64,000 bases of DNA from positions 907,686 to 971,685 of the forward strand of contig CP129478.1 in assembly GCA_030583845.1 (NCBI GenBank). The letters are read 5' to 3'. Under the pieces are notes generated by a model. The model did not search any database. It was not told the DNA's origin and saw only the letters and a program-made list of their open reading frames with translations. The position numbers and the translations under genes are program-made. Source of the stretch: Candidatus Dojkabacteria bacterium. Its GTDB lineage: Bacteria; Patescibacteriota; Dojkabacteria; SC72; JAHDCA01. How positions within the stretch are numbered: position 1 is the first letter of the stretch; each line of letters opens with the position of its first letter. This document shows positions 15,936 through 35,183 of this stretch, piece after piece.

Positions 15936-16556
15936 CTACTGCCTATCAATCTCGTTCATGACGCCCTGCACTTTATATCCCCAGGTAGGACATTGGTAAC
16001 AGTAGTAGCGACCAATTTCATGTGGAGTGTCGGCACCTTTGTCGAAATAACCAAATCTAAGTATCTGGGCATGCTTCTCGATTGCCTGCTCATAGCTTGT
16101 GAAGCTCAGTGCACCGCCCTGACCACCCATACCTGCATAATTGTAAGGTCGATAGTTATGTCGACCTGCACCTGATTCTATTACCGCGATGGCAGGCATC
16201 AGGTTGTAAGGGAGGCCATACTTCACAGCCATCTTTTCAAAGGTCTTTGCCTGAGAGGCCATAGGTGAGCCACGCTTGCTTAGGTAGCTTTCGAGCTTTC
16301 GAATATTCTCCTGGCTATACTTCAGATCTTCTACCCGCTGGTCGACTATTGCCTGCTTTGCGGCATCTTGCGTAAAATCGTACTGAACTGGTACTACGAA
16401 TTCCTTACGGTACTCTGAAGCGGCAAATGCAGAATGCTCGGTTATGATATTGTCGTCAATTTGAAGCTGGCTGAATACGTTCACAAAGTTGCCTGAAAGA
16501 AGTATCATGACAACGAGTACGAGGGCTTTTCTCTTGTAATTCAATGGGACTTGCAT
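15936..16556 (-). CDS. Secreted glucosaminidase (GH73/FlgJ-like) domain protein, putative peptidoglycan hydrolase
   Basis: 206 aa; signal/TM start. 'AIAVIESGAGRH…' resembles the 'ESgwG' glucosaminidase motif. Confidence 0.4.
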   Translation of the reverse strand: MQVPLNYKRKALVLVVMILLSGNFVNVFSQLQIDDNIITEHSAFAASEYRKEFVVPVQYDFTQDAAKQAIVDQRVEDLKYSQENIRKLESYLSKRGSPMASQAKTFEKMAVKYGLPYNLMPAIAVIESGAGRHNYRPYNYAGMGGQGGALSFTSYEQAIEKHAQILRFGYFDKGADTPHEIGRYYCYQCPTWGYKVQGVMNEIDRQ

Positions 16557-28031: not shown

Positions 28032-29432
28032 ATGCCGGATTTCAAAGTACCACAAGTGGGGCCGGTCAGAGACGATCCGCAACCGGGTGGCACAATGAAC
28101 GTCGGACAGACCACTTCAAACAGCGCACCACAGCCTGACATCAAGCAGCCTGCACCGGCAACAGTCCAACCCTCAATGCAGCAGTCACAAGCTGCTCAAC
28201 CAATTGCAAACTCCCTTACAAGCTCACAGCCGCAAAGCAACTCTGTAGCGAGCCAGCCAGCAGCAGATAGCACTGGGGGAGATTTCCAAGATGACTTTGA
28301 TTGGGGTGCTGACCCATTTTCGGCACCACAGCCCATGGCTAGCACTCAGCAGCCAGTAAATAACAGCCAGCCTGCACCAATGGGTGGCGGTGGCTCGTTT
28401 GGAGGTGGTTGGGGATCACCGTGGGGAGGTGGCTCAGCTGGAGGCTGGGGAGATCCGTGGGGTGCACCAGCAGGCGGTCAGCAACCAGGACAGCAGAAGC
28501 GACTTACTCCACAGGAACGCGTCGAAATGATTGAGAGGGTGTATCAGCAGGTTTTGGTAAGAAAACCTGACACAAGAGATATCAACTATTATAAATACAG
28601 CACTCTCGGAGAGGAAGAAATTAAAAAGCAGCTGATCGACGGGAAAGAGCATAAGCAGCTAATCGAGGATGGGAGAAATTACAAGAAGTCTGAGGAGAGG
28701 GCAGAGCAGGCAGAGGCACGAGTCCGGATGCTTGAAGGGCAGGTTAAAGACCAGCTCGAAGAGTTTAGACATCTGACTGAGCTACTTGAAGAGAAGAACC
28801 GATTCATTCAGCGGCTTAGAAGCGAGAATGATGTCCAGTACGGATTCAAATCACCCACTTCAAACTCAATGGGCAACCCGAATCAATCTTACAATCTGAT
28901 GTCCACACCTTCTCAACCTGCGCCTGTACAGCAGCCGTCTCAGCCACAGGTAGCCGCGCCAATCACACAGCCCGCACCACAGATAGAGCCTCAGCCAATC
29001 GCACAGCCAGCGCCTCAGATAGAGCCACAGCAAATTCAACAGCCACAGGCGCAGTTCGAGCCTCAACAAATTCCGCAGCCAACTCCAGATTATGCAGCAG
29101 ATACTGCTCCTATTTCTCAAACAGTCCCAACTACTCAGACATCCCTTGAGCAATCAACACCATATGCTACACAAGGGGCAGTCCCTACAGCAGCCCCAGT
29201 AGCAGCTGGCCAGCACTTTTCAGCACCAGGATCAATTGAATCCGTTGATAGTGGGAATGCAGGAGCCTCATTTCCACAGGAAGAGGTGGACGAGCAGCTC
29301 CCTTTGGGTGCAAACCAGCCTGGGGTCGAGAGTGAAGATGATAATAGCGGTTGGGCCAGCAATGAGCCATCATCTGGTGCTTTGAAGCGTGTATTCGGCA
29401 AGCTTGCTTCGATTGTCTCCCCGGATCAATAG
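28032..29432 (+). CDS. Low-complexity Pro/Gln-rich protein with central DUF4214-like domain and Gly/Trp repeat
   Basis: 466 aa; 'GGGGSFGGGWGSPWGGGSAGGWGDPWG'; a DUF4214-like segment 'ERVYQQVLVRKPDTRDINYYKY'; a coiled-coil; and tandem 'QPAPQIEPQ' repeats. Confidence 0.5.
   Translation: MPDFKVPQVGPVRDDPQPGGTMNVGQTTSNSAPQPDIKQPAPATVQPSMQQSQAAQPIANSLTSSQPQSNSVASQPAADSTGGDFQDDFDWGADPFSAPQPMASTQQPVNNSQPAPMGGGGSFGGGWGSPWGGGSAGGWGDPWGAPAGGQQPGQQKRLTPQERVEMIERVYQQVLVRKPDTRDINYYKYSTLGEEEIKKQLIDGKEHKQLIEDGRNYKKSEERAEQAEARVRMLEGQVKDQLEEFRHLTELLEEKNRFIQRLRSENDVQYGFKSPTSNSMGNPNQSYNLMSTPSQPAPVQQPSQPQVAAPITQPAPQIEPQPIAQPAPQIEPQQIQQPQAQFEPQQIPQPTPDYAADTAPISQTVPTTQTSLEQSTPYATQGAVPTAAPVAAGQHFSAPGSIESVDSGNAGASFPQEEVDEQLPLGANQPGVESEDDNSGWASNEPSSGALKRVFGKLASIVSPDQ
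28968..29075 (+). repeat. Three imperfect 36-nt tandem repeats inside the PQ-rich CDS
   Basis: Units at 28968-29003, 29004-29039 and 29040-29075 encode QPAPQIEPQPIA, QPAPQIEPQQIQ and QPQAQFEPQQIP. Confidence 0.7.
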
Positions 29433-29525: not shown

Positions 29526-29822
29526 ATGATGAATAATGTAGGTCAAAAAATTAAGGACTTCAGAGAAGAGGCTGGGATATCCCAAAAGAAACTTGGTCTC
29601 GCTCTAGGCCTTTCTGACAAAGCTGTGAGCGCTTATGAAAGCGGTCGCACATTGCCCCCACTTGAGACCTTACACAGAATCTCGCAAGAGCTAAATAAGC
29701 CGCTGAAATTTTTCTTAGCGGAAGATGGCGAGGAGAGCGTACTCGAGGAACGTCTCGATACAATCCAAAGAAGCCTCGAAGCTATGCTTGTAGAGATAAA
29801 GGAAATCAAGAAGAGCCTTTAA
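29526..29822 (+). CDS. XRE-family helix-turn-helix transcriptional regulator
   Basis: 98 aa; 'IKDFREEAGISQKKLGLALGLSDKAVSAYESGRTLP' is an HTH_3 motif; C-terminal coiled-coil. Confidence 0.75.
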   Translation: MMNNVGQKIKDFREEAGISQKKLGLALGLSDKAVSAYESGRTLPPLETLHRISQELNKPLKFFLAEDGEESVLEERLDTIQRSLEAMLVEIKEIKKSL

Positions 29823-29852: not shown

Positions 29853-30704
29853 CTACTGAAGCTCAGCTTCAAGTGCCGAGATCGTACTTATTCGGTTGCT
29901 CAACACCTTTTCAATTTCTGTGACAGATTTAGCAGAATACTCCTTAACCTTTTCGCCTTGGGCATCTTGAGTGGTGCGCAGAGTTGTAGCCTGCTCTCTT
30001 TGCTCTTGAGCTAGGGCATCATAAAGCTGGCGGGTTGTATCCCAGTATTGCGAAGTTTGCTTAATGTACTCGATTGTATTGGGAAATTGGGATCCAAGCG
30101 CCATTGATTTGCCAGTGGTGATATGTAGATCTTGCATGCATTCAGTTATTTTTGTGCTAATCTCCTCGTTTGATTGTGAGAAATCGATTCCATTAAGACA
30201 GTTATTGCTTGTAGCTAGTGCGATATTGTAATCTGTGACGTTCAGCTCAGTTTGGAGTGTTTCTAAATAGTAGCCGTACAGATCCGCATACATAATATCG
30301 ACCCTCTGGATCTCCTCAATCTCGGCCCGCTCTTCTGCGGTTAGGTTAAGCTTGAGCAACTCGTCGTCAATCTCCTTTACCTCCTCAATAAGGTCTATCT
30401 GCGAGCTGACTGCTTCAATCGATTGAGTCAGGAGTGACATTCGTGTCGAGAGATCGGCCTCGTTGTTTATCTCCTCCTGTGCCTTGGTAAAATCCACGGC
30501 ATTCTGCTCAAACTCCGAGATCAATTTCTCGCGCGACATTGAGCTCGATGCATATGCGTCGCGATTGTTAATTAAATTGTTATATTCACCAATATATTGA
30601 TACAGGAGGTAGGAGAGTGCAAAAAGCAGAGTAAACAAAGCTATCGCATAAAGAAATACTGCGATCCTGCTCCTCTTCTTTTTTATTGGGGCGGCTGTAA
30701 CCAT
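29853..30704 (-). CDS. Hypothetical N-terminally membrane-anchored coiled-coil protein (operon gene 5)
   Basis: 283 aa; one N-terminal TM helix followed by a long helical, Glu/Gln-rich region. Confidence 0.45.
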   Translation of the reverse strand: MVTAAPIKKKRSRIAVFLYAIALFTLLFALSYLLYQYIGEYNNLINNRDAYASSSMSREKLISEFEQNAVDFTKAQEEINNEADLSTRMSLLTQSIEAVSSQIDLIEEVKEIDDELLKLNLTAEERAEIEEIQRVDIMYADLYGYYLETLQTELNVTDYNIALATSNNCLNGIDFSQSNEEISTKITECMQDLHITTGKSMALGSQFPNTIEYIKQTSQYWDTTRQLYDALAQEQREQATTLRTTQDAQGEKVKEYSAKSVTEIEKVLSNRISTISALEAELQ

Positions 30705-31291
30705 TGTTTTAGGAATTTTAATAATCTCTTACCTCCAAAGAATGCAGCTACTCCTAGCAGAACTAGCAGCGAGAGATTGATAATGTATCGGAGTATATTC
30801 ATATTGTCATAATTAGCAGTCTTTGGCTCAGTTACAAGATCTTCGCCGAAAGTAATCTTGAAATTTTGTGAGCTGCTTCGATTCGTGCTGTAGCCCCAAT
30901 CGACTACATTGACGGTGACAGTGTAAGTGCCTGGATTTTCGGGGTATAGAGTTATTGTTTTTTCGTAAACCTGCCCTTCTTTAACCGCAAAATAGTCGTT
31001 GAAGTTCTTCTTATACCCAAGTCCGAGAGGCGCATCTAGTGCTACCTCTGTCCTGGTAGAGTCTACGTTTGGCTTAATTTTAACGATCAATGGCAGCTTC
31101 TTTGTCCAAGGTGACTGAGTTCCGAAGCTTAGGTCGATCTCATACGGCTCAGTTGGCTCTGCGCTTCCCGTTTGGGCTGATTCATCTACAGTCTCCTCGG
31201 GTGGCATAGGTCCAGTCGCATAAGCAGGTGAGGCTACTCCTACAATAAGCAGGGCAAGTAGAAATAATGTGATTAATCTGCCTCGGTTCAT
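30683..31291 (-). CDS. Hypothetical secreted protein with C-terminal TM anchor (operon gene 4)
   Basis: 202 aa; signal peptide, a beta-rich body and a C-terminal hydrophobic helix plus basic tail. Confidence 0.45.
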   Translation of the reverse strand: MNRGRLITLFLLALLIVGVASPAYATGPMPPEETVDESAQTGSAEPTEPYEIDLSFGTQSPWTKKLPLIVKIKPNVDSTRTEVALDAPLGLGYKKNFNDYFAVKEGQVYEKTITLYPENPGTYTVTVNVVDWGYSTNRSSSQNFKITFGEDLVTEPKTANYDNMNILRYIINLSLLVLLGVAAFFGGKRLLKFLKQWLQPPQ

Positions 31292-31296
31292 CTTCG

Positions 31297-31713
31297 CTAT
31301 CCAAGCAACTTATATATTACAGCTACAAAACTCTTCACAGCCTGGTCAAATTCTCGATCATTTGGTGTAGCTCCATCGTGCACGATGTCATTTCGGAGCT
31401 TGTGTGCTTTCCAGATCGCATCATATGAGCTCTTATTAAAGAGTGATTTTGCCTTTTTCAGGTTATCTCCACATGAATCACTGTTATACAACTTTAGCTG
31501 TAAAGATTTAGAGAGTAAAGAGTCAAACTGGACAATTATATCTCTCATCTCACTGTCTGTAATAGGCTGATCTGCAAGCTTTCGCAGCTGTTCTGCTTTG
31601 CCAAGAAGTGCATCTTTCTTTGAATTATCCCTATTAGTCGAAGTAGCAGCATAAAGGATCAAACCAACCATGATGATTGCTACTATTATAACGATTGTTA
31701 AATTTGTGCTCAT
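31297..31713 (-). CDS. Hypothetical N-terminally anchored protein (operon gene 3)
   Basis: 138 aa; N-terminal TM helix followed by a helical domain. The start overlaps the stop of the upstream gene (ATGA). Confidence 0.45.
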   Translation of the reverse strand: MSTNLTIVIIVAIIMVGLILYAATSTNRDNSKKDALLGKAEQLRKLADQPITDSEMRDIIVQFDSLLSKSLQLKLYNSDSCGDNLKKAKSLFNKSSYDAIWKAHKLRNDIVHDGATPNDREFDQAVKSFVAVIYKLLG

Positions 31714-33644
31714 TTCTCTTTGTAGATTACTTTCTTAATTGCTTTGGCAACATTTACAGCTAACAGGGCCAGCATTAGGAATATGAATAGCGAGATCAGT
31801 TTAACAAATGTATCCCACCACCAGTAGTGCCTAATATTTACACTGTCCTCAAGAATATATGTACGCTCAGTGCCGTACAGAGAAACAATATTGAGGTCAC
31901 CTCTAAGTGCCGCAGAGCGATTCTTTGCAGCCAAATTTTCTTCTTCAATAACCAAGCTACCGGTTATCTCAATTTCTTGTCCAGGGAATATAAGAATACT
32001 TTTATCCTCTTCAAAGCTATTCTCTTTGAAATTATCCTCGAAGTCAAAACTCACACTACTGATGATGCTATTTCCATCATTATGAATCGTAAACTTTGCA
32101 CTAGATGCAGGGTTTAGTATAGAAGCCCCATCGATAATCTGGCTGCTGCTCGCCGAGAGAATTTCAGTAAAATTTCTATCTGTAAGACTCACCTCAATAT
32201 CTTCATTCAAGAAGAAACCAAGCTGTGGCTTAAATGGGTTGTAGCTCCTCGTAACGAAAGCAACGTGATCTTTAAACAGCGGGTCATACATTTGAATACC
32301 AGTGATCACCTCAATCACAGGATCCAGTACGATCCAGCCCTTCAGATTATCCCACACCTCAACCCAGCTATGGATAAATCCAGACTCGTATACTCCCGAG
32401 CTGTCTGAGATATAGCCCTGTGTCAGCCTGCTTGGGATTGAATAGGCTCTTAGAACTGCAATCAGGAAATCATTGTAGTCGGCAGCTGAAGCAATCGCTG
32501 GATTCTCTAGCACGCGCTTCCCTTGGCGGTAGTTGGTGGCTGTATCTAATTCATTTTGAGATCCGAGACGGTCGAGTACATATCGATACAAGATGTTCGC
32601 AAGCTTTGCTTGCTCTTCTGTTGACAATTTTCTAGCATCTCGCTCAAATGATTGAACAATGCCACCGTTTTGTATGTACAAATCGATGCGCTTTAGCTCT
32701 GTCTCGTCAGAGAGGTCCCAGTAATCCGCTTTTTTCGTGCTGTTTTCAAACTGCTCAAACTGAAGTGTACCACCCGTTCCCTCTTCAAATTTGATCAAGC
32801 CCTCAATCTTTACCTTTAGCTCGCTCTCTGCCGGAACTGTATAGCGGAGTGAGAGATTGCCCTCTGGATCCATAAGTACCTTTGAAGGTGGCTCAGTTAC
32901 CTCATCGATCAGCAGCTTCTGCCCATTGCCTATCTTAGGTATATTTACTTCAAATGTTTTCTGGATCTCATCTGTATTTACGAATTGCTTATTGATGCTA
33001 AATTCATAAACAAACTGGTCGGAACCGGAAATCAGTAGCGAGTCGTTCTCTGGTGAGGCGAAGTTAATTATCTTCTGGTTGTTCTGCTCAATGATTGTCA
33101 TCCCCTTAAGCACAGGAATGAGTAGGTCATCAAAAGGTGAGTTAAGTGTAATCTTCACGTGCTCGGAAGTCGTAGAGCTTATGTGGAGAGGTAATTCACT
33201 GCTCTCGCCCTCCTGCATAAACTTTCCTTTGCTAAACGTTATCCTAAACTGTGCTCCTCTGGTTCGATCAATAGTGAGGTTGTTTAGGTCGACGACAAGC
33301 CGTGTTCCTTCTGATACATCGTTGTGACTTACTGTATACGCACGGTCACCCTTTTTCACACCGACATTATCGATCTGCTTAAATGGGAGGGTAATGGTGA
33401 AAAATTTAACAACATTTGCTGCCCCTTCCTCTGGTATGACATGTAGCTGAATCTCTGTAGAAAGTGTTCCCTCGCTGTTGATCGTATAGATGATTGAAGT
33501 AGTTTGTGTAAAGCCTGCAGCACTATCTTCAGAGGAAGCATATAAGTGAGTGGGGAGGAGAGATGTGAATAGGGCGAGTGCAAGTAAAATCGCTGAGCTA
33601 CACTTTGATAGAATTTTCTTTAAATAGCCAGTCGAACTTGTCAT
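31710..33644 (-). CDS. Secreted transglutaminase-like (papain-fold) domain protein lacking the nucleophile Cys, with C-terminal TM anchor (operon gene 2)
   Basis: 644 aa; signal peptide and an N-terminal beta-rich domain. Core '…AADYNDFLIAVLRAYSIPSRLTQGY…GFIHSWVEVWDNLKGWIVLDP' matches the TGase-core 'G.C.dfA…lRa.GIPAR…HaWvEv…GW…DP', but there is no Cys in the nucleophile segment. A C-terminal TM helix follows. Confidence 0.55.
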   Translation of the reverse strand: MTSSTGYLKKILSKCSSAILLALALFTSLLPTHLYASSEDSAAGFTQTTSIIYTINSEGTLSTEIQLHVIPEEGAANVVKFFTITLPFKQIDNVGVKKGDRAYTVSHNDVSEGTRLVVDLNNLTIDRTRGAQFRITFSKGKFMQEGESSELPLHISSTTSEHVKITLNSPFDDLLIPVLKGMTIIEQNNQKIINFASPENDSLLISGSDQFVYEFSINKQFVNTDEIQKTFEVNIPKIGNGQKLLIDEVTEPPSKVLMDPEGNLSLRYTVPAESELKVKIEGLIKFEEGTGGTLQFEQFENSTKKADYWDLSDETELKRIDLYIQNGGIVQSFERDARKLSTEEQAKLANILYRYVLDRLGSQNELDTATNYRQGKRVLENPAIASAADYNDFLIAVLRAYSIPSRLTQGYISDSSGVYESGFIHSWVEVWDNLKGWIVLDPVIEVITGIQMYDPLFKDHVAFVTRSYNPFKPQLGFFLNEDIEVSLTDRNFTEILSASSSQIIDGASILNPASSAKFTIHNDGNSIISSVSFDFEDNFKENSFEEDKSILIFPGQEIEITGSLVIEEENLAAKNRSAALRGDLNIVSLYGTERTYILEDSVNIRHYWWWDTFVKLISLFIFLMLALLAVNVAKAIKKVIYKEK

Positions 33645-34326
33645 ATTTGCGGAGTATCTGTTTTACGATCGGTGTCTTAAGGGTAATGTTATTCTTCACC
33701 ACAACCTCATCCCATCTAATCTTCCTAACCTTCGTTATGTCTCTATAGCGTGGATTCTGAACGACTTCCTGCTTTGCATTTTTTCTAATAACATAATATG
33801 CCATACCCTGCATGGAGTCTAGCTGTGATACATGTTTTGTGACTGAACTATAAGCCTCTACGACAATCATTGCAGTATTACGAGTATTGACTAGGGTAAC
33901 ATCGTAGCCTGGAGGGACGATAAACTTCTGCTCTCTCTTAATTTTTGAATAGATAATATCTGAATCATCTTGATGGAACTTCTGCATAATGACACTTCCA
34001 GTCCCGTAAATGACTTCCATGATTTTGGGATGTGTGGGGAGACGTGTGGCTCTTGTTTTTACAAACTCGATGCCTGCAAAATTGGCTGGGATCACATAGA
34101 TATTTACCTTGAGACCCTTAGTTTTGAAGATATTGTCGTGATCAAGCCCCATGTACTTGTAATAAAAGACCTCTGGGGATGTAAGCTCCTCGTTTAAGAG
34201 TTGTGGGCGAATCTGGTCAATTTCTACTTTGCCAACCTCCTCAAACTGCATATCTTGTGTTGTAAGTTGGTAATCGTCTAGATACAACGAGAACCCGGCA
34301 GATTTTCTCAGGTCTACTTTCGCCAT
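33598..34326 (-). CDS. Cupin protein with similarity to archaeal-type glucose-6-phosphate isomerase (cPGI); metal ligands not conserved (operon gene 1)
   Basis: 242 aa; 'PEVFYYKY…NIYVIPANFAGIEF…FIVPPGYDVTLVNT…VVQNPRYRD' parallels Pyrococcus cPGI 'PVVYEVYAV…TVLYPGKVGKEF…VYVPPYWAHRTVN…VVDNPRWK'. The GHFH/His ligand positions read TRATRL / TL here. I am recalling the cPGI comparison from memory rather than from an alignment. Confidence 0.4.
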   Translation of the reverse strand: MAKVDLRKSAGFSLYLDDYQLTTQDMQFEEVGKVEIDQIRPQLLNEELTSPEVFYYKYMGLDHDNIFKTKGLKVNIYVIPANFAGIEFVKTRATRLPTHPKIMEVIYGTGSVIMQKFHQDDSDIIYSKIKREQKFIVPPGYDVTLVNTRNTAMIVVEAYSSVTKHVSQLDSMQGMAYYVIRKNAKQEVVQNPRYRDITKVRKIRWDEVVVKNNITLKTPIVKQILRKYDKFDWLFKENSIKV

Positions 34327-34349
34327 GGGTCATTATACCACACGACATT

Positions 34350-34416
34350 TTTGTGAAACTGCGCTGCGTTTCACGAACTCCGCCTTCGTGAAGTCGCACT
34401 TGCAAAGTGCGACTTC
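34350..34416. repeat. Array of three adjacent hairpins, the last a perfect 12-bp palindrome
   Basis: Hairpin 1: gtgaaac-t-gcgctgc-gtttcac (34353-34374). Hairpin 2: cacgaa-ctccgcc-ttcgtg (34371-34389). Hairpin 3: gaagtcgcactt-gca-aagtgcgacttc (34390-34416). It shares 'aactccgccttc' plus the 'aagtcgcactt' unit with the nrdD 3' tail at 44725-44782. Confidence 0.5.
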
Positions 34417-34418
34417 AT

Positions 34419-35183
34419 TTATAGGTCTTCGAGGTAGTAGTTTAGCTCAACCATATAGTTGTTGACGCCATTTGCCCATTCATGACGCGGATTCTGTGCA
34501 CAAGGTGGGCAGTAGGTTGCCTCAATTTGGAACGGGGTTAGATCTGTGCCATATCCCTTGGCAAGCCTCTCAGTCACTACCGATATTCCGTCTGACCAGG
34601 TTGCGAATCTGCTCCATGTGCTTCTGCCGTTTATTCTCCCTCCTCGCCATCCCCAAGCGTTATTCGATCCGGCAGGAGTAATATTTCCGAATGCAGACTC
34701 CACGCCGGAAATTGATGCCACCAGCCTCCAATCGAGCCCATGCTCGTCTGCCTCTTCTACAAATACTTCAGCGTACGGATACATTGGGGAGCTGTGGTCT
34801 TCAAGAAACTGCCTCATTGCGATATTTCTTGGATCAGTAGTGATAAAGTTACTGCCAACATTTCGTGGATTGGATATATCTGTTGGTGCCTTATTGAGAT
34901 TTAGGGCAAGAGCAGAGTCAAAGATCTTTATATCGCTATTTTCAACTTCAGTGAGTATCTTACTTTGCTCTGCAGACACATTTTCAGAATTATATTCTAT
35001 CAACCTTGATTCAATTTGCGGCGTAGCGATTGGGTCGAATGCAAAAACAAATAGGAGACACATTGAGATAATAAATATTATTCGCTTCTTTCCTGTGCGT
35101 TCTGTAGTACGCCTAATAATGCTAGATGTACCCCTACCTAAACTGGATAGCTTTTTCTTACTAACTATGTCTCTTTTCATCAC
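34419..35183 (-). CDS. Secreted glucosaminidase (GH73-like) domain protein, putative peptidoglycan hydrolase
   Basis: 254 aa; N-terminal TM; 'LVASISGVESAFGNITPAGSNNAWGW' resembles the FlgJ/GH73 'ESgwG' motif. Confidence 0.4.
   Translation of the reverse strand: MMKRDIVSKKKLSSLGRGTSSIIRRTTERTGKKRIIFIISMCLLFVFAFDPIATPQIESRLIEYNSENVSAEQSKILTEVENSDIKIFDSALALNLNKAPTDISNPRNVGSNFITTDPRNIAMRQFLEDHSSPMYPYAEVFVEEADEHGLDWRLVASISGVESAFGNITPAGSNNAWGWRGGRINGRSTWSRFATWSDGISVVTERLAKGYGTDLTPFQIEATYCPPCAQNPRHEWANGVNNYMVELNYYLEDL

Follow-up and report, generated by a model that had tools for sequence, protein, structure and literature searches.

Five packed open reading frames, all on the minus strand, occupy positions 29853-34326 of a 64,000-nucleotide stretch (the window) from a Candidatus Dojkabacteria (WS6, Patescibacteria) genome, and they raise the question of whether their products work together and, if so, on which side of the membrane. 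An initial annotation had read them as a five-gene operon of secreted or membrane-anchored proteins, possibly for adhesion, and had correctly suspected that the organism was a patescibacterium. The features needed for the argument are listed below, with g0 denoting the glycosidase gene and g1 to g5 the five frames that follow it.

34419..35183, minus strand: g0, glycosidase, 254 aa, upstream of g1
33598-34326, minus strand: g1, cupin, 242 aa
33598..33644, minus strand: g1/g2 dual-coding overlap, 47 nt in nearly all orthologous loci
31710-33644, minus strand: g2, transglutaminase-like protein, 644 aa
32319..32615, minus strand: Transglut_core of g2, aa 344-442 by Pfam limits
31297-31713, minus strand: g3, predicted membrane-tethered HEPN protein, 138 aa
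31378..31395, minus strand: HEPN R-x4-H motif of g3 (R107-N-D-I-V-H112), from two family alignments
30683-31291, minus strand: g4, BatD/DUF11-like Ig protein, 202 aa
30689..30703, minus strand: W-L-x-P-P motif at the C terminus of g4, cytoplasmic
29853-30704, minus strand: g5, predicted coiled-coil-like protein, 283 aa
29856..29872, minus strand: weak terminator-like hairpin at the g5 stop codon, a consensus match only
29526-29822, plus strand: XRE-family HTH gene, convergent

In the window, g1 and g2 overlap by 47 nt, g2 and g3 by 4 nt, and g4 and g5 by 22 nt; g3 and g4 are separated by a 5-nt gap, and in most orthologous loci this junction is a 4-nt overlap. Because 11 of the 38 same-strand junctions within the window overlap, tight packing by itself is not exceptional. 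The standout feature is instead that these junctions are kept exactly throughout the class (-47, -8 or -4, and -4 nt). The g2 ATG sits inside the K-Y-E/D codons of the g1 cupin, with a purine-rich, SD-like AGA/AGG-AAA stretch upstream, and this internal start context is conserved, as is the translational coupling of the two genes. Gene order and junctions are kept across ~60-80 species-level genomes, and practically all Dojkabacteria loci that extend far enough contain g0 through g4. Conserved gene order in related genomes, which had been named as a test of the operon, was therefore found, but the operon has different limits from those first drawn. Its conserved core is g0-(yggT)-g1-g2-g3-g4: g1 to g4 remain members, g5 belongs to one subclade, and g0, one gene upstream, is probably where the operon begins.

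The g1 product had been described as a cPGI-like cupin, and this was borne out. It matches PF06560 (cupin-type GPI) at 44.4 bits (Pfam cutoff 20.7), the best 12 Foldseek matches of its AF2 model (pLDDT 91.6) are all cPGI (E~1e-11, TM 0.73-0.78), and it has in common with the cPGIs of P. furiosus and T. litoralis a C-terminal beta-hairpin motif, ...V.NPRY/W. Its modelled fold is the cPGI-specific cupin. Three of the four cPGI metal ligands (H88, H90, and H136), however, are replaced by variable residues in the family alignment and in a HMMER alignment to PfPGI, and conservation is likewise absent at the substrate-contacting residues Y152, H158, and Y160; more distant relatives keep HHEH. It is very unlikely that g1 is an isomerase. 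Also unlike cPGI, it has a C-terminal addition of ~50 aa, modelled as an extra three-helix module at aa ~205-235.

The second product matches PF01841 (Transglut_core) at 42.8 bits (cutoff 23) and is predicted to be a type I membrane protein composed of a signal peptide, a beta-rich N-terminal region, the transglutaminase-like core, an Ig-like domain, a TM helix, and a short K/R tail. The catalytic Cys is missing in 60/60 orthologues, being Ala in the window and variably P, S, A, or T across the orthologues, while the triad His and Asp are mostly kept. The alignment and the topology prediction bear out the earlier call of a C-terminally anchored pseudoenzyme that carries a signal peptide, and the nucleophile is lost family-wide. 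Outgroup homologues of the same architecture from outside the class retain Cys-His-Asp (SVCMEF...GHQW...VDPT). TgpA, an inner-membrane transglutaminase-like protein of P. aeruginosa, likewise has an intact Cys-His-Asp triad; it is polytopic and includes DUF3488 and DUF4129. The g2 core is closest to the TgpA periplasmic domain (6g49, E=1e-5), but g2 is without the nucleophile that TgpA has.

For g3, the label of an N-anchored helical protein was right as to the N-terminal TM anchor; more exactly, the protein is predicted to hold a four-helix HEPN domain with an intact R-x4-H motif on the cytoplasmic face of the membrane, behind an N-out TM helix. The statement that none of the five products has an assignable function was accordingly too strong. 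In 60/60 sequences the charge bias is consistent with this orientation (K+R average 0.2 before the TM helix and 5.5 after it), and the motif falls within an invariant block, W101..H104-K105-x-R107-N108..V111-H112. The best Foldseek matches of the AF2 model (pLDDT 94) are HepT HEPN toxins and other HEPN domains at probabilities of 0.97-1.0, with weak E-values (0.07). Across the family, weak matches are scattered over at least six HEPN Pfam families (HepT, Apea, Csm6, Swt1, RiboL-PSP, and pEK499_p136), none of which reaches threshold singly; the best of them is HepT-like (E=4e-4). Weak PADLOC matches were to Csx1, CARF_HEPN, and 2TM effector models, some homologues are named 'YutE/DUF86' by JGI, and a g3 profile search of PDB sequences returned designed helical proteins only. 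RNA cutting by g3 is probable.

A HepT protein is soluble and has as its partner an MNT antitoxin, by which it is AMPylated. The HepT/DUF86 toxins of HEPN-MNT systems (8xdj, 7ae6, and 5yep) are the best structural matches to g3 (probability <=1.0, TM ~0.53) and have the R-x4-H motif in common with it, but g3 is tethered to the membrane, no MNT gene lies next to it, and it belongs to the fixed gene core, not to a mobile toxin-antitoxin pair. Another likeness is to Csx28, a type VI-B2 CRISPR accessory protein that is activated by Cas13b and acts as a regulated, membrane-resident effector (bioRxiv 10.1101/2021.11.02.466367). Both are small proteins built alike, with one TM helix at the N terminus followed by a four-helix HEPN domain in the cytoplasm. 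The Csx28 motif is divergent and serves a face-to-back octamer interface (bioRxiv 10.1101/2021.11.02.466367), whereas that of g3 is a canonical, invariant R-N-x3-H, and Csx28 goes with Cas13b while g3 has no Cas13 neighbour. No Csx28–g3 sequence match was detectable, and Csx28 was not among the best 50 Foldseek matches. A class of 'bacterial membrane-associated HEPN domains' has been predicted to degrade RNA in response to stimuli, with proposed cleavage at the inner membrane face likened to Ire1 and C6orf70 (Anantharaman et al. 2013, PMC3710099). As in that class, g3 combines one TM helix with a HEPN domain that is cytoplasmic and catalytically intact. The groups described (DUF4145 with a WP-signature TM, the Abi2/Swt1 STY4199 type, and the 2TM-Zn-ribbon type; PMC3710099) have other TM signatures and domain partners; g3 lacks the WP signature, and the candidate sensors for it are polypeptides of their own.

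The remaining products are g4 and g5. From its N terminus, g4 is made up of a signal peptide, an acidic linker, a BatD/DUF11-like Ig ectodomain, a TM helix, and a K/R-rich cytoplasmic tail, and PF13584 (BatD) is weakly matched by 13 of the 32 family members. In BatD, a beta-sandwich lies between a signal peptide and a C-terminal TM helix. Besides the weak PF13584 match, g4 thus resembles the BatD of MoxR/vWA 'Bat' operons in overall layout, and BatD and TgpA are envelope proteins, as are g4 and g2; unlike Bat operons, this locus has no MoxR, DUF58, or vWA genes. In the g4 tail, W197, L198, P200, and P201 are invariant or nearly so in the alignment, which makes WLxPP a candidate docking motif. 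The g5 product is predicted to be a helical, coiled-coil-like ectoprotein with an N-terminal anchor (N-in, C-out), and equivalents of 261-280 aa were found only within the subclade of the window, in loci L001, L005, L007, L008, L010, and L013. The convergent XRE regulator proposed beyond g5 was confirmed (HTH_3 E=7e-14) and is syntenic in all Dojkabacteria loci; that it is part of the system is unproven.

Charge bias places the bodies of g0, g2, g4, and g5 outside the membrane and the HEPN domain of g3 inside, and g1 is predicted to be cytoplasmic. The alternating N- and C-terminal anchors first described match these predictions except that the soluble domain of g3 is predicted to be cytoplasmic. 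Since the cupin and the HEPN protein, two of the five, are cytoplasmic, the locus does not simply encode secreted or surface proteins, as had been supposed.

We tentatively favour the explanation that the locus, inherited vertically throughout the class Dojkabacteria, is one operon for an envelope-spanning complex that would couple non-catalytic ectodomains to a juxtamembrane HEPN effector. Outside would be the g0 glycosidase, the g2 pseudoenzyme, and the g4 Ig protein, plus g5 in one subclade; inside, the N-terminal TM helix would hold the g3 HEPN domain at the membrane, together with the g1 cupin that is without its metal site. The non-catalytic ectodomains may bind a cell-wall or surface ligand, and their TM helices and conserved short cytoplasmic tails would control the oligomeric state of g3. 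In turn, g3 would either cut RNA at the inner face of the membrane or work as a membrane effector of the Csx28 kind, and the degenerate cupin may be a cytoplasmic ligand-binding or scaffolding subunit. The data establish what the domains are, which catalytic residues have gone, how the proteins are oriented, that the core is universally conserved, and that its translational coupling is conserved too; we infer that the products associate physically, and likewise the way in which signals would run and any activity as a nuclease or pore.

The same genes could instead form a cell-wall remodelling or division module in which g2 and g4 control or position g0 and YggT, much as the catalytically dead LytM factors EnvC and NlpD control amidases, and in which the cupin and the HEPN protein are accessory or unrelated. 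From its sequence, g0 is predicted to be an N-anchored (N-in, C-out) peptidoglycan glycosidase of the lysozyme superfamily, with an invariant catalytic-Glu motif, SGVESAFGN. Its weak matches are split between GH73 Glucosaminidase (11/25 members) and SLT_2 (9/25), so the original "GH73-like" label is just approximately right. In ~57 other loci it lies 0-26 nt upstream of yggT or the cupin gene in the same orientation, and a YggT-family gene stands between g0 and the cupin in ~55/60 loci. A wall function is also consistent with the TGase/papain-like fold, which includes wall peptidases, and with the kinship of g2 to the periplasmic domain of TgpA. A paralogue of g0 lies elsewhere in the window and counts on the same side. 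We nevertheless consider this module unlikely. It offers no part to the cytoplasmic HEPN domain, which is strictly conserved and has its motif intact, or to the cupin, which is translationally coupled to g2; YggT is dispensable at the locus, because the window lacks it; and no peptidoglycan-binding domains (LysM, SPOR, or PG_binding) were detected in g2 or g4.

An adhesion or host-attachment assembly of alternating N- and C-anchored g2, g4, and g5, serving episymbiosis, retains part of its basis: the bodies of these proteins are predicted to lie outside the cell, Ig-like and BatD-like domains occur among them, and the organism is a patescibacterium. Exposed proteins often evolve faster, and by median pairwise identity the ectodomain proteins are indeed the fastest (g2 0.33, g4 0.38; g5 0.19) and the cytoplasmic proteins the slowest (g1 0.57, g3 0.47), a contrast that also counts for the envelope-spanning complex. 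This assembly is improbable, however, as two of the four universally conserved products (g1 and g3) are cytoplasmic and unaccounted for, coiled-coil g5 is confined to one subclade, and adhesin-type repeats, sortase signals, and pilin features were not found in the products. As a rule, surface proteins that contact a host differ in number of copies and in architecture; in this class, by contrast, both protein lengths and gene junctions are almost constant.

The genes might also form no functional unit, being a frozen collinear block of independent lineage-specific genes whose overlaps entrench their order in a reduced genome; the cupin would then have a housekeeping role, like its counterpart downstream of dnaJ in other CPR. 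Synteny in Dojkabacteria also takes in dnaE, uvrC, XRE, and p466 and therefore reflects general class collinearity as much as operon selection. Outside the class, the degenerate cupin adjoins dnaJ among housekeeping genes (neighbours are DnaJ, rhomboid, adenylate kinase, Mur ligase, or SerRS), and the active g2-like gene is solitary, accompanied by neither a HEPN nor an Ig partner. No cupin–TGase-like linkage, no linkage of either with a HEPN gene, and no independent lineage supporting the g1–g4 linkage were found outside Dojkabacteria. Because synteny is wide inside the class and the genes are unlinked outside it, conserved order is weaker evidence for a unit than at first sight, and overlaps are frequent in the window. 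We still regard a frozen block as quite unlikely: four successive junctions are nucleotide-exact over roughly 25-57% protein identity, the dual-coding overlap keeps its internal start context, the lineage in which the two pseudoenzymes became neighbours is also the one in which both active sites were lost, and the membrane topologies are complementary.

Anti-phage abortive infection, with g3 as a Csx28- or HepT-like suicide effector and envelope sensors detecting phage adsorption, would fit the defence effector architecture of TM plus HEPN (Csx28, bioRxiv 10.1101/2021.11.02.466367; HEPN survey, PMC3710099), the weak PADLOC matches of g3, and the resemblance of the convergent XRE gene to defence-associated regulators, but it is highly improbable for a cluster that is universal, single-copy, and fixed beside dnaE class-wide, with no composition anomaly, the closest tRNA genes >7 kb away, no adjoining mobile-element gene, no PADLOC matches for g1, g2, g4, or g5, no relatives found in viral contigs or viral structures, and no antitoxin-like MNT or Cas13 partner at the locus.

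Returning to the envelope-spanning operon, the products of the Dojkabacteria cluster look like one membrane-spanning unit, and the finding would be a new combination of known parts.

The five minus-strand genes proposed in the initial annotation were all recovered in the window, at unchanged coordinates, and they are listed here with the gene upstream.

Features of the cluster (window coordinates)
g1, 33598-34326, minus strand, 242 aa: cPGI-like cupin
g2, 31710-33644, minus strand, 644 aa: transglutaminase-like protein, predicted pseudoenzyme
g3, 31297-31713, minus strand, 138 aa: membrane-tethered HEPN protein
g4, 30683-31291, minus strand, 202 aa: BatD-like Ig protein
g5, 29853-30704, minus strand, 283 aa: coiled-coil protein of the window's subclade
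g0, 34419-35183, upstream of g1: N-anchored lysozyme-superfamily glycosidase

Read from g1 to g5, the junctions are overlaps of 47 nt and 4 nt, a gap of 5 nt at g3/g4 and, at the far end, an overlap of 22 nt; the packing was first described as overlaps of 4-47 nt throughout. The earlier guess of a patescibacterial host was right, as g1 and g2 are 100% identical to Candidatus Dojkabacteria (WS6) MAG entries. None of g1 to g5 had a match in NCBIfam. A promoter scan returned 13 sites with 13.0 expected from shuffled sequence, which is no excess, and a terminator scan returned 7 with 4.6 expected, of which the one hairpin at the g5 stop is weak.

Our main new result is that the "hypothetical" 138-aa protein g3 is, by modeled fold and motif, a transmembrane HEPN protein (TM-HEPN). 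Its AlphaFold2 model is a four-helix up-down bundle (pLDDT 94), and HEPN structures account for 12 of its top 16 Foldseek matches, at probabilities of 0.77 to 1.0 and E-values of only 0.07 to 0.5. The best of these include HepT toxins (8xdj, 8xeh, 8yuf, 7ae6, 5yep, and 7bxo) and other HEPN domains (2hsb and sacsin), with probabilities of 0.9 to 1.0 but E-values no better than about 0.1; the four non-HEPN matches are to the unannotated Thermus protein 1wwp, to FKBP51 in complex with FRB, and to a pair of designed cytokine mimetics. The family shares an invariant block, W101..H104-K105-x-R107-N108-x-x-V111-H112, containing the canonical HEPN motif R-x4-H (R107-N-D-I-V-H112), and R107, N108, and H112 are unchanged in two alignments of 32 and 39 sequences. 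Family members gave sub-threshold Pfam matches to at least six HEPN families (best HepT-like, E=4e-4), none of them at gathering score, and PADLOC returned only matches at E>=0.007, including Csx1 and CARF-HEPN models. Several homologues have been named "YutE (UPF0331/DUF86)" by JGI, and a g3 profile searched against PDB sequences found designed helical bundles only, which is uninformative. Both the modeled fold and the motif are those of HEPN proteins, yet g3 matches no curated family. In 60/60 sequences, the mean K+R count rises from 0.2 ahead of the lone N-terminal TM helix to 5.5 behind it, a bias that places the HEPN domain, by prediction, on the cytoplasmic side, against the membrane.

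An N-terminal TM helix followed by a cytoplasmic HEPN domain is also the arrangement of Csx28, which acts as a regulated octameric pore (bioRxiv 10.1101/2021.11.02.466367). No Cas13-sized or CRISPR-associated neighbor, a trait of type VI-B2 Csx28, was found in the window or across roughly 80 loci, and PADLOC gave no match to Cas13 or Csx28.

The cPGI-like character first noted for the g1 cupin was confirmed by both Pfam and Foldseek. The protein scores 44.4 bits with PF06560, well above that model's gathering threshold of 20.7 (E=1.4e-11), and the best 12 PDB matches to its AlphaFold2 model (pLDDT 91.6) are all to P. furiosus or T. litoralis PGI (E~1e-11, TM 0.73-0.78), with generic cupins trailing by roughly five orders of magnitude at E of about 1e-6. 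A three-helix module has been added at the C terminus. While g1 shares the fold and Pfam family of cPGIs, it fails on the metal site (His88, His90, Glu97, and His136, hereafter HHEH), since the three His positions are occupied by T94, L96, and V143 in the window protein, V143 being the residue aligned with His136 of P. furiosus PGI by HMMER. The His88, His90, and His136 columns are variable across 20 orthologues, as are the equivalents of Tyr152, His158, and Tyr160 in the family alignment. An exhaustive profile search yielded 273 clusters at E<1e-10, from which 130 full-length representatives were compared. HHEH is intact in 59/130, the more distant ones, and gone in the approximately 70 closest to g1, which argues that g1 is a degenerate descendant of real cPGIs. 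Because neither metal ligands nor substrate-contact residues are conserved, we rule out a genuine PGI on sequence grounds, and the label "glucose-6-phosphate isomerase family protein" is misleading for a protein that is predicted not to be an isomerase. Genuine cupin PGIs are sporadic in CPR (Jaffe et al. 2020). The more distant homologues recovered here do resemble real cPGIs, and one of them (P0349/P0394, 1135-1140 aa; Candidatus Omnitrophica bacterium 4484_213, OQX53677.1) joins a phosphoglycerate kinase (PGK) domain to a cupin PGI with HHEH intact, apparently fusing two enzymes of glycolysis.

By topology prediction, g2 has a signal peptide and, at its C terminus, a TM helix with a K/R tail. 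Transglut_core (PF01841) is matched at aa 344-442 with 42.8 bits against a threshold of 23, as it is by 34/34 family members, and the nearest structure to this core is 6g49 (E=1e-5), the periplasmic TGase domain of TgpA from P. aeruginosa; the C-terminal region has weak Ig-like matches (DUF7507). The protein shares the core domain of TGases but fails on the catalytic Cys. The nucleophile column holds P, S, A, or T in 60/60 orthologues, as expected from the initial description of g2 as catalytically dead, and the His is not strictly kept (N in locus L012, S in L020 and L021, D in L008). Homologues with the same architecture on two non-Dojkabacteria metagenome contigs, L085 and L090 (E~1e-28), have the C, H, D triad intact (SVCMEF...GHQW...VDPT), suggesting that the Dojkabacteria g2 is a derived pseudoenzyme.

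In g4, a signal peptide and an acidic linker precede an Ig-like domain of about 110 aa, which is followed by a TM helix and a cytoplasmic tail with an invariant W-L-x-P-P at its end; the BatD DUF11-like domain is weakly matched by 13/32 members. Enlarged g4 forms of 314-318 aa in two Dojkabacteria lineages (L031, 12990-13946; L045, 6281-7225) have an N-terminal domain of about 100 aa inserted before the Ig-like domain. The helical protein g5 is N-anchored with, by prediction, an extracellular soluble part, and equivalents of 261-280 aa are confined to the subclade of the window (L001, L005, L007, L008, L010, and L013). At four loci lacking g5 (L046, L061, L079, and L081), an ORF of 61-84 aa lies downstream of g4 with the same 22-nt overlap, and may be a truncated g5 remnant or a short N-anchored peptide. 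In g0 the motif SGVESAFGN is invariant across the family. The "GH73-like" assignment made at first holds at the level of a lysozyme-superfamily glycosidase but not more narrowly, as weak matches are divided between GH73 and SLT_2; a g0 profile against the PDB found only goose-type lysozyme, at E=0.73. A 206-aa minus-strand ORF elsewhere in the window (15936-16556) is a g0-family paralogue (hmmsearch E=3.8e-12). In nearly all Dojkabacteria, represented by L001 (7673-7978) and about 55 other loci, a gene for a 95-aa YggT-family membrane protein (yggT) lies between g0 and the cupin. It is absent from the 92-nt gap at this position in the window (34327-34418), and the 64 kb hold no yggT match anywhere.

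A cupin scan using one genome per species identified 111 relatives. We retained 80 loci, and all of them, however labeled, come from Dojkabacteria-type MAGs. Where contigs are long enough, tblastn and ORF calling gave a class-wide order of dnaE(-), g0, yggT, g1, g2, g3, g4, XRE(-), p466(-). Conservation of gene order in related genomes, which the initial annotation had set as a check, is thus seen in the collinearity of g0 to g4 across Dojkabacteria loci. Overlaps are nearly invariant at 47 nt for g1/g2, 8 or 4 nt for g2/g3, and 4 nt for g3/g4. The g2 ATG sits within the cupin K-Y-E/D codons, preceded by AGA/AGG-AAA in every orthologue, and this dual-coding stretch accounts for the extreme conservation of the cupin C terminus and the g2 N terminus. 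By median pairwise identity, the ectodomain proteins evolve fastest (g2 0.33, g4 0.38, and g5 0.19) and the cytoplasmic ones slowest (g1 0.57 and g3 0.47). At L050, L054, L068, and L071, a single 244-aa cupin frame was not recovered, although residues 1-235 are still matched by tblastn; g2 is preceded there by a gap of about 520-645 nt (with a 40-aa ORF inside it in L071), and g2 and g3 overlap by 25 nt; the cupin there may have another start or frame arrangement or be disrupted. Beyond the g5 end of the window's operon lie p466 (28032-29432, plus strand; 466 aa, P/Q-rich, with a helical middle and a weak DUF4214 match) and the HTH gene XRE (29526-29822, plus strand), whose synteny across Dojkabacteria is as strict as the operon's own.

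For context outside the class, metagenomes were scanned with the profile of a 16-sequence subgroup of distant cupins, the full set of 40 sequences being too diverse. Degenerate cupins from outside Dojkabacteria were found in 48 loci, in many cases directly downstream of dnaJ and ahead of genes for rhomboid, adenylate kinase, a Mur ligase, or SerRS. An ancestral cupin-TGase linkage was ruled out, as g2, g3, and g4 are beside the cupin in 0/48 of these loci. Since the active g2-like gene also stands alone in L085 and L090, the cupin-g2-g3-g4 linkage is specific to Dojkabacteria, and no second lineage corroborates it. Within Dojkabacteria, the linkage coincides with the loss of catalysis in both g1 and g2. 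The same survey contained a large HHEH-less, cPGI-derived cupin family of a "Y-S-x-Y" type (L094-L129) with recurrent dnaJ-cupin pairing (for example, L124 8789-10780 and L129 8773-10786).

Both the function of the cluster and its status as a single complex we infer from these features. The best fit, which we hold tentatively, is a membrane-spanning complex through which something at the wall or cell surface would be coupled to a HEPN effector, a reading drawn from the ectodomain anchors, the conserved tails, the juxtamembrane HEPN domain, and the coupled cupin. Two C-anchored and putatively noncatalytic ectodomain proteins, g2 and g4, would contribute short conserved cytoplasmic tails; g3, with its motif intact, would be the juxtamembrane cytoplasmic effector; and g1, translationally coupled to g2, would serve as a cytoplasmic cupin of ligand-binding type. 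On the model of Ire1, membrane-associated HEPN proteins that degrade RNA in response to a stimulus have been predicted (Anantharaman et al. 2013, PMC3710099). A more specific version, which we regard as speculative and improbable as it stands, is an Ire1-like trans-envelope device built of separate polypeptides and fixed in Dojkabacteria as a core operon of the chromosome, in which g2 and g4 would sense a wall or host-surface ligand and gate oligomerization of the g3 HEPN RNase through TM helices and tails while g1, as a pseudo-isomerase, would read a cytoplasmic sugar-phosphate signal.

Somewhat less probable than the membrane-spanning complex is a wall-remodeling or division module built around g0 and YggT, in which the dead enzyme g2 would act as regulator. 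The adhesion or surface assembly suggested initially has the ectodomain proteins in its favor, but we consider it unlikely because it leaves the cytoplasmic members g1 and g3 and the fixed architecture unexplained. It is equally doubtful that the genes form no functional unit at all. In favor of that reading, and limiting the argument from synteny, the conserved block takes in the housekeeping genes dnaE and uvrC, so collinearity is general to the class, and overlapping same-strand junctions are common in the window (11/38). An abortive-infection system is very improbable given the universal fixed position of the genes, with no known-system match in PADLOC and no viral relatives. A known anti-phage defense system was rejected, as g0, g1, g2, g4, and g5 are without a PADLOC match and g3 has matches only at E>=0.007, and so was a phage or mobile origin, with no IMG/VR relatives by pattern plus tblastn search, no meaningful BFVD structural matches, ordinary base composition with no GC anomaly, and the closest tRNA genes more than 7 kb from the cluster.

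Each part of the cluster comes from a known superfamily; to judge by the literature that we searched, in which no earlier account of the cluster turned up, it is the combination of a TM-HEPN effector with TgpA-like and BatD-like envelope proteins that is new. Two adjacent predicted pseudoenzymes with active relatives in other uncultured lineages offer a clear case of enzyme-to-non-enzyme co-option, and the canonical HEPN motif occurs here in a membrane-tethered and apparently housekeeping setting, not in a mobile toxin or defense system. Should the proteins form no complex, the annotations of g1 (no isomerase) and g3 (TM-HEPN) would still be corrected. Few CPR lineages are as metabolically minimal as Dojkabacteria (Jaffe et al. 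2020), and since these genes are kept everywhere with frozen junctions, they are likely important to Dojkabacteria biology. If they do act as one complex, it would represent bacterial surface-to-RNA signaling via HEPN, which was predicted in 2013 and of which we found no demonstration in the literature searched, and would open the envelope biology of an uncultivated phylum to concrete tests. If the Ire1-like device is true, an episymbiont would be putting a HEPN effector to housekeeping use, with RNA turnover coupled to its cell surface.
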